Assembly (NCBI GenBank): GCA_963706595.1
Contig: OY970166.1
Span: 992,001 to 1,056,000 of the forward strand
Origin: an uncultured cyanobacterium
GTDB taxonomy: Bacteria; Cyanobacteriota; Cyanobacteriia; Cyanobacteriales; Nostocaceae
DNA: 64,000 nt
Direction of reading: 5' to 3'
Shown one piece after another: positions 20,704 through 31,996 of the stretch (position 1 is the stretch's first letter; the number at the start of each line of letters is the position of its first letter). The notes under the pieces are model-generated. The model was not told where the DNA came from. It was given only the letters and a program-made list of their open reading frames with translations, and did not search any database. Position numbers and translations under genes: made by a program.

Positions 20704-23289
20704 TTACATGATGTTTAATGGGTCTACATCTATAGTTAAACTGACAGAACTAGGACAAAGCGATCGCACTGACTCCCAATCAGGTAAATTTGGTAAAGCA
20801 TCGGGATCAAACTTGAGCATAATTTGCCAACGAAAACGGTTAGCTACCCGCGCAACACTGGCTGGGGCTGGACCGAGAATATCAAAGCCCTCGCTAGAAC
20901 TCAAAGCTGTGGCGATGATTTGGGCTGTGTTCTGGACTTGAATCGGATCTAAACCACTCAAGCGTAATAAAATTAACCGTCCATAAGGAGGATAATTCAG
21001 CGCTTGGCGTTCTTCTATTTCTGTTTGGGAAAAAGACTGATAATCATGTTGTTTTACCGCCCCAATTACCGGATGTTCTGGGGTGTAAGTCTGCACAATT
21101 ACTCGACCGGGATCATCGCCTCTACCAGCCCTTCCGGCTACTTGCGTCAGGGTTTGAAATGCTCGCTCACTGGCGCGATAATCTGATAAATGCAGCAAAC
21201 CATCAGCAGAGACAACACCTACTAATGTCACCTGGGGTAAATCTAAACCTTTGGTAATCATTTGTGTTCCTATTAATAAATGGGCTTCACCGTTAGCAAA
21301 TCGAGTCAATAAGTTACGGTGTGCGCCTTTATTGCGGGTGGTATCACTATCAAAACGAATATAACTCAACTGCGGAAATTGTTTTGCTAATTCTTGGGCG
21401 ACGCGCTGAGTTCCGCTACCAAAGAATTTCAGGTAAGGTGAACCACATTCGGGGCATTGGGGAGGATGCGATCGCGTATAGTTACAGTAATGACAGCGTA
21501 GTATTTGCGGCGCTCCTTCTTCTGTCTGGTGATAGGCTAGCGATACATCACAATGGGGACATTCCATTACATAACCACAGCTGCGACAAGAGACAAAGGT
21601 ACTGTGTCCCCGACGATGGATAAATAAAATTCCCTGTTGTTGCTTCTCTTCTAGTTGCTGTAAAGCTGTTTGTAACGACCTACTAAATATAGAACGATTT
21701 CCCTGCTGTAACTCTAGCCGCATATCGACTAATTCTACCGGTGGTAATGGGCGGGAGTTAATGCGTTCGGGAAGGGATAGGTAATAGGAGTGGGTTGACC
21801 TCTCCCCCAACCCCTCTCCTACAAGGAGAGGGGAGTGAATTTCCCCCATTCCCTTGTAGGGAAGGGGGGTTAGGGGGGTTAGGTCTGAGGCGTTGCTGAG
21901 ATTTACCCAACTTTCTAATGAAGGGGTGGCGGAACCGAGAATTAAAGGACAATTTTCTATTTGGGCGCGCCATTGGGCGACGGTGCGGGCGTGGTAGGTG
22001 GGAATGGGAGAATCTTGTTTAAAGCTGCTGTCGTGTTCTTCGTCTAAGATGATTAAACCTAAATTGGGTAATGGGGCGAAAATGGCGCTGCGAGTCCCGA
22101 TGACAATTTGGGGTTCTCCTGTCAGCATTTGTCGCCAAGTATCGTAACGTTCGCCGGCGGAAAGGGCGCTGTGATAAACGCTGACTTTACCGCCGAAACG
22201 AGCGCGGAATCGGTCTGTTAGCTGGGGTGTGAGGCCAATTTCGGGAACTAAAACTAGGGCGGATTTTCCTTGATTGATTAGCGGTGCGATCGCTTGTAAA
22301 TATACCTCTGTTTTGCCTGAACCTGTAATCCCATGCAACAACACTTGAGCAAACCCATTCAGGGCTTGTATAGTCGTTAAGGCATTTGCTTGATGAGGAT
22401 TTAAAGTTTTGGGGACATCTGGCGCTAATGCTAGTCCCTGTTCTGTTCGCAATACTTCTTTGTCTTCGATGACGATGTAACCCTTTTGTGCCATCGTCTT
22501 CAGGATAGAGGAACTAGCATGACAAATTTGTAATAGTTCACTCTGCCACAATTCTCCGCCACTCCGCCGCAATACTTCCAAAATTTCTCGTTGGCGAGTT
22601 GTTAAATCACCATCAACGCACCAATCAAGGTGACGGCTTTTTGTCTCTTTGGTCGATTTAGTCGCGGTGGTTCTAAATAACTTTCTACTAACCCAAATCG
22701 TAACAACTCCCGCACACCTTTATAGGCTGTTTTGACTTTCTGTTGCAGGTAGGTGAAACTATAGTCTCCGGCTGGTTGAGATTGCAAAAGGTTTAACACT
22801 TGCTGGGCTGCGGGAGTAAGGAAAGTCAAAGATGAGGCAATTTGTCTGTTTATTTCTTCGTTGGAGATCAAGCGAATCCGACGTTGCGATCGCCCCAGTA
22901 ACCCCGGCGGTAATGCCACCCGGATCACCTGAATTAAAGGCGTATAGTAATATGCAGCGACTCGATTTAATAATTCCCAATAGCTCGGAGGGAAGAAACC
23001 TTCGCTGACTATATCCTCTACTTCTTTGATTTTTTCAGGTGGTAGATCGATATTTAGTTCTGTCAATAAACGAATGGCGATCGCTCCTACTTTTTGAGTG
23101 CGAAATGGTACACTTAAAATATCACCGGGTTTGATTTTTAACTGACTTGGTAATCGATAGGTAAATAATCCTGTAGTCTCCTGGACAATCCACCAGCACT
23201 TCAATCCATCGATTTACATTTTCAGCTTCGTAAGTTTCTCCAGGTTCAGCAACCACCAAATTCAGTAAATTTATGCCAGTTTTATACAT
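20704..23289 (-). pseudogene. priA: Primosomal protein N' (PriA) interrupted by two frameshifts
   Basis: Three consecutive segments: MYKTGINL...VDCPG, then TTGLFTY...LIGA, then DGDLTTRQ... leading into the helicase (GITGSGKT, DEEH, SAT, Cys-rich region). Indels near 23178 and 22616. May be sequence error. Confidence 0.8.
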
Positions 23290-26640: not shown

Positions 26641-27570
26641 ATGCTTATGACTTATTTGTGGCGATTATTTCTCAGTTTAGTGCTGGCTTTTTTGCTCAAT
26701 TGTTCTACAACGAGCGCATATTCATTACCGATTGTCAAGACTCAAATTACAGCCAGTGATTTGTTAAGTTTGGGTGTCAGTAATATGCAAAGTGGTAATT
26801 ATCGAGAGGCGATAGAGAATTTTAACCAAGCGCTGGAACTGCAATCAGATTCTGCTGTGGCTTATACCGATCGCTGTCAGGCTCATCTGCAATTACAAGA
26901 TTACCACCAAGCCGTCACAGATTGTAATCAAGCTCTAAATTTAGCACCAAATAGTCTGGAAGCGTATTTGAGCCGAGGATTAGCACAATATAGACAAGGA
27001 AATGATTCTGCTGCCATTGCTGATTATAACCAAGCGATCGCACTTCATCCAGTCGATTTTCGTGCTTATTATAACCGAGGTTTAGCCCGTGTCGGTGAGG
27101 GAAATTACACCGAGGCGATCGCTGATTACAATTTAGCCCTCACTCAAATTTCCCCAAACACAAGTTCATCCCTCGCCGATATCTACAATGACAGAGGTTT
27201 AGCTCACTTACTCTTGCAAAATTCCCCAGCCGCTATCCTGGACTTTAATCGAGCAATTCGCCTGAATCATCAGGATTTTAGAGCTTACTTTAATCTCGGC
27301 TGTGCTGATGGCAGAAATAGCGATAATGTGAGTGCAATCGGCAATTTTTCCCAAGTTATCAAACTTAACCCTAGCAATGCCTCAGCTTACCTGAATCGGG
27401 GAATAGCTCAATATCGTTTAGGGTATCATCAAGGCGCGATCGCAGACCTAAAAAAGGCATCCGATTACTTTGAAAACCAAGGAAACAGCATCGCCTATGA
27501 AAAAACCTTAGATTTACTCGATAAATTGCGGCAACAACTCCAATTTGTCACCGAAATCGCTCTATTGTAA
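26641..27570 (+). CDS. Tetratricopeptide-repeat protein
   Basis: Repeated AYxNRG...AIxDYNxA units; signal peptide. Confidence 0.9.
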   Translation: MLMTYLWRLFLSLVLAFLLNCSTTSAYSLPIVKTQITASDLLSLGVSNMQSGNYREAIENFNQALELQSDSAVAYTDRCQAHLQLQDYHQAVTDCNQALNLAPNSLEAYLSRGLAQYRQGNDSAAIADYNQAIALHPVDFRAYYNRGLARVGEGNYTEAIADYNLALTQISPNTSSSLADIYNDRGLAHLLLQNSPAAILDFNRAIRLNHQDFRAYFNLGCADGRNSDNVSAIGNFSQVIKLNPSNASAYLNRGIAQYRLGYHQGAIADLKKASDYFENQGNSIAYEKTLDLLDKLRQQLQFVTEIALL

Positions 27571-27742
27571 AACTATTAACTCTTTGAGCGTCCAAAAAAT
27601 TTCTGCCTCTGGAAACAGATATATAACTACCATCAAATTTAGTGATTATACTCGTTATCATTGATTTAGTGAGAAGGTTAGTCAATAGCTAATTATTTGC
27701 TAACAATAGATGATATATGCTAACAAATGCTAATGTAGGGGT

Positions 27743-28336
27743 ATGGCTTATGTACCACTACGAGAAGCAGTCAAAAAACTGGGACTGCACCCAAACACTT
27801 TAAGGAAGTACGCAGACAATGGCAAGATTGAAAGCATCAAAAACGAAGCAGGACAAAGACTTTTTAACGTTGAATCCTACCTCCGTGGTGCAACTAGAAC
27901 TTCCCTTGTTTGCTACTGCCGAGTTAGTTCAACCAAACAACGAGACGACCTTGGTAGACAAATTGCCTATATGCAATCACTCTACCCAGATGCCGAAATC
28001 ATCAAAGACATCGGCAGTGGAATCAACTTTAAAAGAAAGGGACTGCAAGCCTTACTGGACAGACTTATGCGGGGAGATAAGCTCACGCTTGTTGTTGCCT
28101 GTCGTGACCGACTCGCAAGGTTTGGATTCGAGCTTATTCAGTACATGGTCGAGCAAAACGGTGGACAGCTCGTGGTTCTCGACAACACTGTACACTGCCC
28201 AGAGTCAGAGCTTACCTCGGATCTTCTCTCCATCCTCCACGTCTTCTCTTGTCGGATGCACGGACTCAGGAAGTACAGTAAAAAAATCAAGGAAGATCCG
28301 GATCTTCCTCACAACGGCGCAGAGGCGGATCGTTAA
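27743..28336 (+). CDS. tnpA: IS607 serine transposase TnpA
   Basis: N-terminal MerR-like HTH; YCRVSS, DIGSGINFKRKG and DRLARFGF. Confidence 0.95.
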   Translation: MAYVPLREAVKKLGLHPNTLRKYADNGKIESIKNEAGQRLFNVESYLRGATRTSLVCYCRVSSTKQRDDLGRQIAYMQSLYPDAEIIKDIGSGINFKRKGLQALLDRLMRGDKLTLVVACRDRLARFGFELIQYMVEQNGGQLVVLDNTVHCPESELTSDLLSILHVFSCRMHGLRKYSKKIKEDPDLPHNGAEADR

Positions 28337-29387
28337 ACAGTGGTTTGGTGTGTCCAGGTTTGTTTACAACACTACCGTTAAACTGCTGCAAGACTCTAAC
28401 GTTAAGGCTAACTGGAAAGCGATTAAGACTGACATATTGAATGGACTACCAGAATGGAGTAAATCAGTTCCCTATCAAATTAAATCAATCGCCATCAAAG
28501 ATGCCTGTAAGTCTGTCAGCAATGCCAAGAAAAAGTTTAAAAACGGTGGTGGTATTAGCAAGATTAGATTTAGATCAAGAAAAGACACTGTGCAATCTTG
28601 CTACATTCCCAAATCTGCGGTAAAAGATTTGGGAATTTACCACACTATATTAGGTGAGGCAACCTTTAAAGAAGCCTTACCACAAAGCTTTGGCGACTGT
28701 CGTTTGGTGTTTGCGTACCGTGATTACTATTTGACAGTTCCAGAGGATGTGCCACAACAGAAGTCTGATAACCAAGGACGTGTTGTAGCACTTGACCCCG
28801 GCATCAGAACATTTATCACCTTCTTTTCTGAATGTAGTTTTGGTGAAATTGGAACATCTGCTAATTTGCAAATTCAGAAGCTATGTTTTCGTTTGGATAA
28901 GTTAATTTCTAAATTCACTAAAGCCAAGTGCAAACAAAGAAGAAGGATGAAGCTTGCCGCCAGTAGACTGCGAGGTAAAATCAAAAACCTTGTAGACGAA
29001 TTGCACAAGAAAACTGCTCGATTTTTGGCTGATAACTTTGACATGATTTTACTGCCAACCTTTGAAACATCTCAAATGTCTAAGAAGGCGAAGCGACGGA
29101 TTAGGTCAAAGTCAGTGCGCCAAATGTTAACACTCTCTCACTACCGATTTAAGCAGTTTCTTAAGCATAAGGCTTTTGAGACTAATAAAGTAGTTATGGA
29201 TGTCAACGAAGCGTACACATCAAAAACAGTCAGTTGGACTGGTGAAATCATCCCCAACCTTGGTGGTGCTAAATTCGTTAAGTCTCCATCTGACGGGCAG
29301 GTGATGAGCCGGGACATGAATGGTGCGCGAGGGATTTTCCTTCGTGCATTGGTTGATACGCCCTCTCTTAAGGAGTGTATTTGTTAA
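27819..29387 (+). CDS. tnpB: RNA-guided endonuclease TnpB, pro-Fanzor-like
   Basis: SRFVYN, ALDPG, NEAYTSKT and RDMNGARGI; start uncertain (ATG 27819 or 27990). Confidence 0.88.
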   Translation: MARLKASKTKQDKDFLTLNPTSVVQLELPLFATAELVQPNNETTLVDKLPICNHSTQMPKSSKTSAVESTLKERDCKPYWTDLCGEISSRLLLPVVTDSQGLDSSLFSTWSSKTVDSSWFSTTLYTAQSQSLPRIFSPSSTSSLVGCTDSGSTVKKSRKIRIFLTTAQRRIVKQWFGVSRFVYNTTVKLLQDSNVKANWKAIKTDILNGLPEWSKSVPYQIKSIAIKDACKSVSNAKKKFKNGGGISKIRFRSRKDTVQSCYIPKSAVKDLGIYHTILGEATFKEALPQSFGDCRLVFAYRDYYLTVPEDVPQQKSDNQGRVVALDPGIRTFITFFSECSFGEIGTSANLQIQKLCFRLDKLISKFTKAKCKQRRRMKLAASRLRGKIKNLVDELHKKTARFLADNFDMILLPTFETSQMSKKAKRRIRSKSVRQMLTLSHYRFKQFLKHKAFETNKVVMDVNEAYTSKTVSWTGEIIPNLGGAKFVKSPSDGQVMSRDMNGARGIFLRALVDTPSLKECIC

Positions 29388-29747
29388 TGAATGTTAGCAA
29401 AAAAGTATCGGAAAACGAGTATCGATAGACTTCTGTGAAGGAATTGTAACAGGCGCAGAACCTCCGCCGTGAAAATGCAGGAGACTAAAGACATATAATG
29501 CTTTCTGCTTTATTATTAATGCCACATTTTAAGCTTGTCACGCCAGTAGGGTGCGTTATGGACGCTAGTCCTAACGCGCTGAGAATTGAAGATGGTGCGT
29601 TGCGCTACGCGACAACACACCCTACACACACTAAAGTCTCCCCTTTCCTTAGCAAGGAGAGGGGTTGGGGGTGAGGTTCTATATTTTATTAAATCCACAT
29701 TCCTTCGTGAGGTAATTTTAGGAAGATTCCCCTCAGTTTTGAATTGA

Positions 29748-29778
29748 AGTATCGCTTTTTAGGAAGCGGTATTTTTTT
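29748..29778 (+). terminator. Putative intrinsic terminator
   Basis: AGTATCGCTT...AAGCGGTATT hairpin followed by a T run. Confidence 0.45.
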
Positions 29779-29866
29779 GATGAGCGATTATTTTTCGCTT
29801 AGGTAATAATTGGAGAGGAGCAAATTTTTAATAACATTAATTGTTCATTAACAAAAATTTACAGCT

Positions 29867-31996
29867 ATGTCAGAATTATGGACTAATTTATTTACATCAG
29901 GGCAATTTATACCACACGGACATTGCTATTTATGGAAACCAAATTTAGTCTGGTTACACTTAATATCTGATTTGGTAACAGGACTAGCCTATTACTCCAT
30001 TCCAGCGACACTTTTTTACTTTGTCCGCAAACGGCTGGATTTACCCTTTCATGGGATGTTTCTGCTGTTTATTGGATTTATCTTAGCTTGCGGCACAACT
30101 CACTTCATGGCAGTTTGGACACTTTGGTATCCCACTTATTGGCTGTCGGGGTTGATTAAAGCAATAACGGCAATCGTATCTTTAATTACAGCCGTAGAAC
30201 TTGTACCCTTAGTTCCCCTAGCTCTTGCACTTCCCAGTCCGGCTCAACTAGAACAAGCCAATCAAGAACTACAAACACAAATCGTCGAGCGATTACGGGT
30301 AGAACAAGAATTGAGAAAACACCAAAATCATCTAGAAGAGTTAGTCGCTATTCGCACTGAGGAAATTACCAAGTCTAACGAGCAATTAAAGCTAGAAATT
30401 GCTGAACGCCAGCGCATTCTATCAGTTCTCAGACACAGTGAACAGCGTTACCGTTATTTAGCTGAGTCAATTCCCCAACTTGTATGGACTGCTGATGTCG
30501 ATGGCAGTACTGACTATTTTAACAGCAATTGGTGTAAATACACGGGACTAGAAATGGAGCAGTCTGTGGGTTTTGGTTGGTTAACAGCGTTGCATCCTGA
30601 CGATGTAGAAAGAGCAGGTCAAGTGTGGTTAAATGCCGTATCTAATGGGACTGTATATGAAACTGAATACCGCTTCCAACGAGGTGATGATGGTTGCTAT
30701 CGCTGGCACTTAGGGCGAGGCTTACCAGTTAAAGATGAGGAAGGTAATGTAGTGAAGTGGTTCGGTACTTGTACAGATATCCATGAACACAAGCAAATAC
30801 TTGAAGAACGAGCGCACCTGCTGGAATTAGAACAAATTGCCAGAGAAAAAGCCGAAACAGCTAATCGCATTAAAGATGAATTTCTGGCTGTACTTTCTCA
30901 TGAGTTACGCACTCCATTAAATGCGATTTTGGGGTGGTCGAAGTTATTGCAAACTCGGAATTTTGATCAAGAAAAAAGATTACAAGCACTAGCTACAATC
31001 GAGCGCAATGGCAAATTACTGGTTCAACTAATTGAGGATTTGTTGGATACTTCGAGAATTTTACAAGGCAAATTGACGCTGCAAATTACGAAAATCAATT
31101 TGGCATCTACAATATTGTCTGCATTAGATACCATGCGGTTAGCATTAGAAACTAAATCGATTCGGGTGACGACAATTTTTGAACCGAATATGGGCATGAT
31201 TATGGGTGATTCTACTCGCTTGCAGCAAGTTGTCTGGAATCTTCTTTCTAATGCGATTAAATTTACACCCAATCAGGGAAAAATAGCAGTGGAATTAAGG
31301 CAGGCTGATGGTTATGCTCAAGTTATAGTGAGTGATACAGGTCAGGGAATTAATTCAGAGTTTCTGCCCTATGCTTTTGATTATTTCCAACAAGCAGATA
31401 GCAGTTCTGTGCGAAAATTTGGCGGGTTAGGACTGGGATTAGCCATTGTGCGGAATATTGTGGATATGCATGGCGGTATGGTGAAAGCAGAAAGTCTGGG
31501 TGAGGGACAAGGAGCAACTTTTACTATTAGTTTACCCCTTCGTCAAGATAATAGCCCCAGTCTCCTAGATGCTGCTAATTTACCCACAAATTTAGCAGTT
31601 AATTCTTTACTTCTGGCGGGGATAAAAGTTTTAATTGTTGAGGATGATGATGATGCGCGAGATTTTCTGCTGTTTGTATTAGAGGAAGAGGGGGCTGAGG
31701 CGATCGCCGTATCTTCGGCTTTTGCAGCTTTGGAAGTATTAATTCAGGTAAAGCCAGATATTTTAGTCAGCGATATTAGTATGCCGGATATGGATGGCTA
31801 TATGCTCATACATCAAGTCAGAACTTTGACTCCAGAAGCCGGGGGACAAATTCCCGCGATCGCCTTAACAGCCTATGCTAGAGATGAGGACCAGCAACAA
31901 GCACTAAAAGCAGGGTATCAAATGCACTTATCTAAGCCTGTGAACACAGAAAAATTAATTGCCGCAATTCTCAAACTGGTGGCAACAGCAGTGTAA
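29867..31996 (+). CDS. Hybrid sensor histidine kinase (ethylene-receptor-like TM domain, PAS, HisKA, HATPase, REC)
   Basis: SDxxxxxAYYSIP and FILACGTTH; SHELRTPL; GGLGLGL; DISMPDMDG. Confidence 0.92.
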   Translation: MSELWTNLFTSGQFIPHGHCYLWKPNLVWLHLISDLVTGLAYYSIPATLFYFVRKRLDLPFHGMFLLFIGFILACGTTHFMAVWTLWYPTYWLSGLIKAITAIVSLITAVELVPLVPLALALPSPAQLEQANQELQTQIVERLRVEQELRKHQNHLEELVAIRTEEITKSNEQLKLEIAERQRILSVLRHSEQRYRYLAESIPQLVWTADVDGSTDYFNSNWCKYTGLEMEQSVGFGWLTALHPDDVERAGQVWLNAVSNGTVYETEYRFQRGDDGCYRWHLGRGLPVKDEEGNVVKWFGTCTDIHEHKQILEERAHLLELEQIAREKAETANRIKDEFLAVLSHELRTPLNAILGWSKLLQTRNFDQEKRLQALATIERNGKLLVQLIEDLLDTSRILQGKLTLQITKINLASTILSALDTMRLALETKSIRVTTIFEPNMGMIMGDSTRLQQVVWNLLSNAIKFTPNQGKIAVELRQADGYAQVIVSDTGQGINSEFLPYAFDYFQQADSSSVRKFGGLGLGLAIVRNIVDMHGGMVKAESLGEGQGATFTISLPLRQDNSPSLLDAANLPTNLAVNSLLLAGIKVLIVEDDDDARDFLLFVLEEEGAEAIAVSSAFAALEVLIQVKPDILVSDISMPDMDGYMLIHQVRTLTPEAGGQIPAIALTAYARDEDQQQALKAGYQMHLSKPVNTEKLIAAILKLVATAV

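Follow-up and report, generated by a model that had tools for sequence, protein, structure and literature searches.

The IS607 element and its two overlapping frames

A complete IS607-family element of 1,736 bp, counting the GG at either end, occupies positions 27676..29411 on the plus strand of the window, the 64,000-nucleotide stretch of a Nostocaceae chromosome analysed here. It holds an intact tnpA frame (27743..28336, plus strand) for a 197-aa serine transposase with a MerR-type helix-turn-helix (HTH) and a resolvase domain (PF00239, PF00376; NF033518), and a tnpB frame (27819..29387, plus strand) that encodes 522 aa when read from its first ATG, the candidate start. The tnpB frame is open from 27804 to its stop at 29387 and spans tnpA codons 26-197 in the +1 register, which amounts to the first 172 of its 522 codons, and the same long frame is present in the second copy of the element and in relatives. 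An earlier, sequence-only reading had placed a compact RNA-guided nuclease at 28790..29387, an interval that covers the RuvC half of the protein and leaves out the opening of the frame and its first ATG; the term 'compact' is not supported, as the conserved frame measures ~450-520 aa, the length of Fanzor2, and not ~360.

The ends of the element, GG at 27676-27677 and GG at 29410-29411, were fixed by copies that share them in different flanks, and empty alleles in genomes of the same genus carry a single GG at the insertion place in five of six cases and a single G in the sixth. The element has GG at both ends, one GG in the empty site and neither terminal inverted repeats nor a target duplication, the end and target hallmarks used as definition of IS607 in passages of PMC6188088, and its TnpA passes the IS607 family test with 163.5 bits on the NCBIfam profile NF033518 (cut-off 110). 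The second copy in this genome (G000:C1:4648063-4649801) is 97% identical over 1,739 bases and has both frames intact, and in the single-coding part the two copies differ by 35 base changes versus 7 residue changes.

Four motifs in one plus-strand open frame make up the RuvC site of this TnpB. The RuvC-I aspartate D326 lies in a DPG motif (ALDPG; 28794..28796), the column that holds the RuvC-II Glu in canonical TnpBs is occupied by P413 (MILLPTF; 29055..29057), the alternative catalytic E464, equivalent to Fanzor2 E467, follows 51 residues later (NEAYTSKT; 29208..29210) and D499 is the RuvC-III aspartate (RDMNGA; 29313..29315). Using phmmer, we aligned the protein to Acanthamoeba polyphaga mimivirus Fanzor2 (PDB 9b0l chain P; E 2.1e-24) at DPG, at a Gly in the canonical-Glu column, at NEYLT and at RDEN; excerpts of PMC11832414 give the triad of that Fanzor2 as D324/E467/D501, and its E467A variant was inactive and served as dead control (excerpts of PMC10530073). 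All 121 aligned close homologues, among them the query, share each of D326, P413, E464 and D499, and the motif set is therefore not chance; D326, E464 and D499 are also invariant across 144 diverse sequences. A fold model built on a deeper alignment (mean predicted local distance difference test, pLDDT, of 84) gives residues 461-470 a mean pLDDT of 93, having raised residues 465-469 from below 50 in the first model, and the alignment to 9b0l suggests that the three acidic residues would meet in space. The sequence-only reading is borne out on all these counts, that is on the four motifs, on a TnpB with DPG and shifted Glu encoded next to an IS607 tnpA, and on the completeness of the element. 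Judged by its sequence, the tnpB product is likely an RNA-guided DNA cutter of a Fanzor-related lineage, signs of activity being the invariant triad, the few residue changes among the base changes between the two copies and the covarying right-end RNA. In two loci of one named Nodularia genome (L043 and L049; protein P0042), ~19 residues are inserted in frame between P413 and E464, both frames being otherwise open.

Protein-level selection on the +1 frame of tnpA

Within the overlap, TnpB residues 1-75 (27819..28043, plus strand) are predicted to be disordered (pLDDT ~40) and are weakly constrained and partly dispensable, and residues 76-130 (28044..28208, plus strand), encoded over tnpA codons 101-155, form a conserved domain that matches the RuvC-R part of the Fanzor2 N-terminal domain. 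Beyond codon 77 the +1 frame is free of stops in all 83 non-redundant tnpA genes; ten carry +1 stops at codons 28-77, and residues spelled by the +1 frame are conserved (Y/F79 in 83, W80 in 79, L91 in 83, S118 in 81 and W119 in 83 of 83). When loci were collected with a core-only query lacking the N-terminal part, the SWF motif stood in the open frame of DPG at 71 of 80 genome loci, three of the other nine being cut by contig ends, and this frame lay in +1 of tnpA at 72 of the 75 loci that have a tnpA. A tnpA-first sample, comprising 30 automatic loci and 51 hand-picked from 150 listed rows and including the window and one duplicate, gave the same picture: 52 of 55 loci with this type of TnpB had no +1 stop (maximum 2), and the +2 frame has 3-18. 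IS607 tnpAs that accompany other TnpBs carry 11-18 +1 stops in six of six cases and do not overlap their TnpB, and the 20 tnpA-first loci without a visible TnpB comprise 7 with 0-2 stops and 13 with 6-18. Recoding with the codon usage of the genome yields a mean of 10.5 +1 stops, with 0 of 5000 recoded genes stop-free.

The divergence at wobble positions carries the same signal. In close tnpA pairs four-fold wobble divergence is 0.19 at codons 104-150 versus 0.47 at codons 1-22, and control tnpAs (a group chosen partly by stop count, with loci later regrouped by downstream TnpB type) show no such dip. Wobble positions of tnpA are fixed where the +1 frame spells Trp, Leu or Ser, and the codon for the invariant tnpA Val145 is GTT in 80 and GTA in 3 of the 83 genes, which +1 reads as Phe or Tyr. 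All 83 genes retain W119 and L91 though the overlying tnpA residues vary, and P78, Y/F79 and S118 are encoded through several different codons. In one viral family, 19 copies with 1-12 tnpA-frame stops under the domain retain the TnpB frame and the motif, and the wobble constraint from tnpA is released in these decayed copies (0.30 versus 0.34 in the core); two long copies of the same family keep both frames. These results show that the +1 frame at residues ~76-130 is under protein-level selection. We infer that it is the younger of the two frames: other IS607 elements have the serine recombinase frame with no such overlap, and only this lineage was seen to have the +1 domain.

An ATG precedes the domain in 82 of the 83 genes, at codons 21-27 in 52 of those. 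A zinc-finger-bearing relative in the same genome (G000:C1:364928-363123, minus strand) reads as one 602-codon frame from the TnpA start to the TnpB end, apparently owing to a frameshift within the overlap. RNA-library contigs of close relatives also cover the element: run X2 contains 1,587 contig pieces over window positions 27642-29416, with several different flanks and with a variant in which a 3-base deletion at 27960 would preserve both frames. Contigs from the four runs that cover the element were not used as a measure of expression, as they cannot show transcription, strand or RNA ends.

The N-terminal domain, the zinc-finger region and the predicted guide RNA

Residues 53-130 of the mimivirus Fanzor2 form a domain that, according to excerpts of PMC11832414, has no counterpart in other TnpB structures and whose S83 and N82 are in contact with the RNA pseudoknot. 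Model residues 76-516 of the window protein align to 9b0l residues 53-518 (Z 27.9, root-mean-square deviation 3.7, 408 aligned residues), and in both models no TnpB-like chain but Fanzor2 aligns from residue 76; the alignments of other TnpBs begin at ~152 and comprise 320-342 residues. The overprinted segment is modelled at pLDDT 62-93, and at the level of the model it has the RuvC-R part of the structured Fanzor2 N-terminal domain. In the profile alignment S118-W119-F120 (28170..28178, plus strand) corresponds to Fanzor2 S83-W84-Y85, of which S83 contacts the guide-RNA pseudoknot in the same excerpts. Five giant-virus loci from metagenome-assembled genomes (L180, L291, L293, L301 and L319) have a +1 tnpA overlap of 172-214 codons and score 56-79 bits on the domain profile; an ESM Atlas search with residues 70-160 gave a best value of 0.87, which we take as a lead only. 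The overprinted domain is likely, though not proven, to be homologous to the Fanzor2 N-terminal domain, as far as models can tell.

In the region where relatives carry a zinc finger (29229..29303, plus strand), the window protein has none of the four cysteines. VSWT and SPSD, modelled at pLDDT 93-96, stand in place of the relatives' CxxC motifs, and six residues separate E464 from V471 at the first Cys column. The substitute motif, SWTG, shows strong conservation, and the string SWTGE has 0 occurrences in the supplementary file of PMC10711439. Because all four cysteines are lost, the published pro-Fanzor C4 search pattern misses this group, matching 0 of 121 close homologues; the defining paper ascribes the C4 zinc finger to 'many' family members (excerpts of PMC10711439), and zinc-finger loss is reported for other TnpB branches in passages of PMC10691335. 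Among 150 cluster representatives 82 have four Cys, 49 none and 14 one or two (5 unscored), and one origin of the loss was not supported, bootstrap trees giving 2-3 changes. By its sequence features the window protein is a zinc-finger-less variant of the pro-Fanzor lineage.

Over the last tnpB codons we predict the core of an omegaRNA scaffold (29324..29411, plus strand), with a stem at 29324-29348, a pseudoknot pairing 29355-29359 with 29405-29409 and a hairpin at 29380-29401. In the 24-pair structure, 93.6% of the cells across 22 right ends are paired and 29 show two-sided changes, neither value being reached in 500 shuffles, and the stem covaries at tnpB wobble positions. All five pseudoknot pairs can form in 110 of 120 scorable loci (of 191), among them 45 of 50 with changed sequence (shuffled mean 8.5, maximum 19), with the caveat that these loci are kin and not independent. 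As the wobble divergence of tnpB drops only over the last 20-40 codons, the core probably measures ~90 nt. Covariation thus points to a pseudoknotted right-end RNA next to the guide, as expected of an OMEGA system, the predicted guide being host DNA read through past the right end (29412..29431, plus strand), which varies between copies and has its role assigned by analogy to ISXfa1. A single-sequence fold of the last 200 nt (z -2.6) places the pseudoknot strand in a local hairpin, and we preferred the long-range pairing because covariation supports it. Rfam returned no relevant family for 27000-30500, with one chance snoRNA match (E 0.17).

The insertion-site motif of the element is AAGG (27674..27677, plus strand), an instance of the family pattern RRGG: among 22 distinct left junctions GG is present in 22, a purine at -1 in 21 and a purine at -2 in 22. 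All 37 right ends end in CGG, a count partly fixed by the search pattern. The nuclease of ISXfa1 takes GGG yet spares the CGG at the element end (excerpts of 10.1101/2023.08.09.552727), and RRGG is for this reason, and by analogy to Fanzor2, the predicted target-adjacent motif (TAM) of the window nuclease. The genome contains no self-target by this criterion, RRGG followed by 12 nt of either guide having 0 occurrences in it. The left end (27678..27742, plus strand) bears short direct repeats at 27683-27734 with ~20-bp spacing, likely TnpA binding sites and a usual feature of IS607 ends (passages of PMC6188088), and a promoter scan gave 6 sites against 3.6 expected, none assignable.

Several observations concern the surroundings and other remnants of the family. 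Compared with the relatives' empty alleles, the right flank lacks 25 bases from ~10 bases past the GG (window 29420-29421) and ~19 more at ~29470; the first gap spans the cutting distance of TnpB-type nucleases, but since a hairpin can form in the lost piece, simple slippage is equally likely. Further right, 29496-29700 holds short repeated elements matching hundreds of places in the genome. Short family remnants lie at G000:C1:3045419-3045095 and 5139797-5139312 (one deleted copy with a right end, one C-terminal fragment). On the minus strand of the window, a helicase gene at 20704-23204, which we take to resemble priA, is present as two open reading frames (ORFs; 22602-23204 and 20704-22581), possibly through a frameshift or sequencing error.

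Placement, interpretation and comparison with known systems

A profile of 48 relatives searched against PDB retrieved Fanzor2 first with 192 bits (next 78), Foldseek with the better model placed Fanzor2 on top (E 5e-22) and, among viral models, the named top matches were giant-virus transposases. On the profile NF038280 the window TnpB scores 26.7 (cut-off 350). In a tree of 67 core rows, from which the three diagnostic columns had been removed and which contained no Fanzor1 (15 rows dropped and 17 added relative to an earlier set), the window protein falls with viral DPG proteins and is split from 18 canonical-Glu TnpBs at 98/98. This grouping with giant-virus Fanzor2-like proteins was a check set by the sequence-only reading and came out in its favour; its term 'Fanzor2-ancestor' goes beyond the tree, in which the giant-virus rows are unsupported as a group (20/58) and a place as sister or ancestor of Fanzor2, to the exclusion of other shifted-Glu clades, is no more than possible, and excerpts of the defining pro-Fanzor paper (PMC10711439) state that the direction of transfer cannot be fixed. 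Taken alone, the motifs it relied on are not diagnostic. Two TnpBs of the same genome (G000:C1:2942756-2944087 and 5421188-5422225) have DPG, a shifted Glu, no zinc finger and NADxN at RuvC-III, with no IS607 tnpA nearby, no N-terminal domain and 26-30 bits against the core of the window protein, compared to 96-142 for viral Fanzor2-like proteins and 34 for a canonical TnpB; in the tree they fall within the viral DPG group on a branch 2.5 long. Because these two share the motifs yet belong to a different branch, DPG and shifted Glu alone do not decide lineage membership.

The host is that of pro-Fanzors, an IS607 element in a cyanobacterium, with the nearest named carriers in Nodularia and Anabaenopsis records; since it lies on a bacterial chromosome and not in a eukaryote or eukaryotic virus, we did not file the protein as Fanzor2. 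Of the proposed pro-Fanzor assignment, DPG, shifted Glu, IS607, cyanobacterial host and grouping with Fanzor2 thus stand, while the zinc-finger search pattern and the short length do not. Carriers of the group outside cyanobacteria include Poribacteria, Latescibacterota, Caldilineaceae and phages, the phage records (H4-H23) listing 20 Vibrio phage relatives and one of a Microcoleus phage at 36-39% identity with the N-terminal domain covered.

We consider it probable that the locus is an intact IS607 element whose TnpB combines a Fanzor-type RuvC site, the loss of the zinc-finger Cys and a 172-codon overprint that is likely translated, has a predicted fold like that of the Fanzor2 N-terminal domain and likely arose inside tnpA. 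TnpA would excise and insert the element at GG, and TnpB would start at an AUG within tnpA, probably that at 27819, though 27990 would keep the domain too. Residues 76-130 may pack on RuvC, with the SWF motif helping to keep the guide-RNA pseudoknot in place, the part that RuvC-R plays in Fanzor2. Transcription across the right end would yield the short scaffold and ~20 nt of flank as guide, and D326/E464/D499 would cut the vacated site (RRGG plus flank) and spare the occupied site ending in TCGG, so that repair restores the element.

Several results weigh against this interpretation, beginning with those on the overprint itself: the loci are kin, so that counts are not independent (and the tnpA tree is a quick tree), and a ribosome-binding-like word precedes the early ATG in just 24 of 58 genes (background 13%). 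TnpB could instead start past tnpA, at ~360-400 aa, with the open +1 frame a side effect of biased codon use or of a signal that tnpA carries at the DNA or RNA level. Three named close homologues are indeed annotated at 361-401 aa (two others at full length), the RefSeq start of the PCC 7120 plasmid relative lies after the overlap, 187 codons into an open frame of 578, and a synonymous shuffle within the gene leaves +1 open in 243 of 5000 trials, so a single gene proves little. Such a short start is nevertheless very unlikely, given the stop-laden +1 frames of the control tnpAs, the +1 residues kept through different codons, the 19 copies in which the frame outlives tnpA and a segment, modelled at pLDDT 62-93, that extends the match to Fanzor2 only. 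Most improbable of all is a programmed +1 ribosomal shift joining the DNA-binding head of TnpA to TnpB; it would suit a +1 frame that typically opens near tnpA codon 20, inside the HTH, and the 602-codon frame of the related locus, but not the in-frame ATG before the domain in nearly every gene, so often at codons 21-27, nor the ten genes with early +1 stops, nor the tnpA-decayed copies that keep the domain.

Further points against concern the link to Fanzor2. Sequence likeness to the solved domain is thin, the SW motif alone aligning and hhalign aligning just from SWF onward; the basic thumb of Fanzor2 is not kept, residues 131-155 being Ser/Thr-rich (pLDDT ~50); the aligned range given above marks the first and last aligned residue only; and by VIA Z-score Fanzor2 (27.9) ties with ISDra2 TnpB (27.1). 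The closest Fanzor2 retrieved, L351, matches 9b0l with 360 bits but reaches only 6.2 bits on the domain profile, and no remnant of tnpA accompanies it; a search of viral contigs by two patterns for the gene of the solved Fanzor2 itself found only this relative, and the viral relatives L168, L174, L178 and L347 are without the domain. The overprinted domain might accordingly be real and not homologous, its likeness consisting of one short motif and a model that leans on TnpB cores, which we regard as unlikely: it sits in the same place directly before the core, has the same SW motif at the pseudoknot-contacting residues and brings the aligned residues well above those of other TnpBs, and other giant-virus proteins have the full domain in the same overlap. 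That the protein binds its target and cuts poorly or not at all, through loss of the zinc finger beside the shifted Glu, is quite unlikely as well. All four Cys are absent, and the Fanzor2 active site lies in the RuvC and zinc-finger domains (excerpts of PMC11832414); the triad is invariant, however, the SWTG replacement is conserved and well modelled, the elements occur in several copies (one named genome has at least 10 loci) and, as cited above, other branches have lost the finger too.

Building on the overprint interpretation, we lean, with distinctly less assurance, towards a wider proposal: that the 'unique' N-terminal domain of Fanzor2 originated de novo within an IS607 tnpA, in its +1 frame, and is common to the whole pro-Fanzor lineage, that pro-Fanzors are of full Fanzor2 length and often truncated in databases, that the disordered viral front end with its nuclear signal may share the overprint origin, and that the zinc-free branch is active, with an RRGG TAM and a ~90-nt scaffold in its own last codons. 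Pro-Fanzors are described as shorter than Fanzor2 and lacking its N-terminal part in excerpts of the supplement of PMC10711439; the open frames of ~520-600 codons that we find in zinc-finger-less and zinc-finger-bearing cyanobacterial loci contradict that view at the level of sequence. If true, the proposal would make it possible to trace how a structured, conserved protein domain emerged within a different gene of a bacterial mobile element, explain the source of the Fanzor2 N-terminal domain and overturn the sole reported difference between pro-Fanzors and Fanzor2, their length. Constructs made from 360-400-aa entries would then lack the part predicted to hold the guide RNA, and pro-Fanzors would have to be tested in the long form. 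As a rare character, the shared overlap could moreover help to order transfers among cyanobacteria, phages and giant viruses.

Three features go beyond the sequence-only reading, namely the tnpA overprint, the loss of the four zinc-finger Cys and the short covarying right-end scaffold with RRGG sites. The rearranged active site has been described before; the overprint and the zinc-free branch are the new parts, and neither was found in the full-text literature searched, to which the original papers on IS607 and giant-virus insertion sequences, ISfinder and subscription papers did not belong. Neither PMC10711439, in main text and supplement, nor the main texts of PMC11832414, PMC3627910 and PMC13565253 use the word 'overlap', and the excerpts of PMC10432273 and PMC12923547 concern other matters. 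Excerpts of PMC3673617 mention a '100-aa insertion' at the ORFB N-terminus of one amoeba element and overlapping ORFs in general. We also considered as precedent the dual-coding tnpB of 10.64898/2026.02.14.705889, which uses an antisense frame and is a different thing.

With pro-Fanzors as described in excerpts of PMC10711439 and 10.1101/2023.08.09.552727, the window system shares DPG, a Glu six residues before the zinc-finger position, an IS607 serine transposase, a cyanobacterial host, a G-rich insertion site and a pseudoknotted right-end RNA. It differs in that the protein is without zinc-finger Cys and fails their search pattern, and in that it and its zinc-finger-bearing relatives have a frame of Fanzor2 length with the extra part inside tnpA. 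The TnpB2 and RIIr clades (excerpts of PMC10530073 and PMC10691335) have likewise lost the canonical Glu, use an alternative Glu and in some branches have lost the zinc finger; the two shifted-Glu examples of the same genome differ by their NADxN RuvC-III and by having neither an IS607 tnpA nearby nor the N-terminal domain. Canonical IS607 elements (H. pylori IS607, ISXfa1; passages of PMC6188088) resemble the window element in their GG-to-GG ends, the lack of target duplication, the short end repeats, the order tnpA then tnpB and the right end CGG, and their two ORFs are said in the same passages to 'often overlap', but they have the canonical Glu, and the control tnpAs, with their many +1 stops, do not overlap TnpB. 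Finally, the mimivirus Fanzor2 (PDB 9b0l; excerpts of PMC11832414 and PMC10530073) matches the window protein in length (520 versus 522 aa), disordered first 50-75 residues, a structured N-terminal domain before the core, the D/E/D positions and a pseudoknot beside the guide, and differs by ~20-22% identity, the zinc finger and basic thumb absent here, a bacterial host here, a scaffold of 205 nt against a predicted core of ~90 nt, and a GGG TAM against the insertion motif RRGG.

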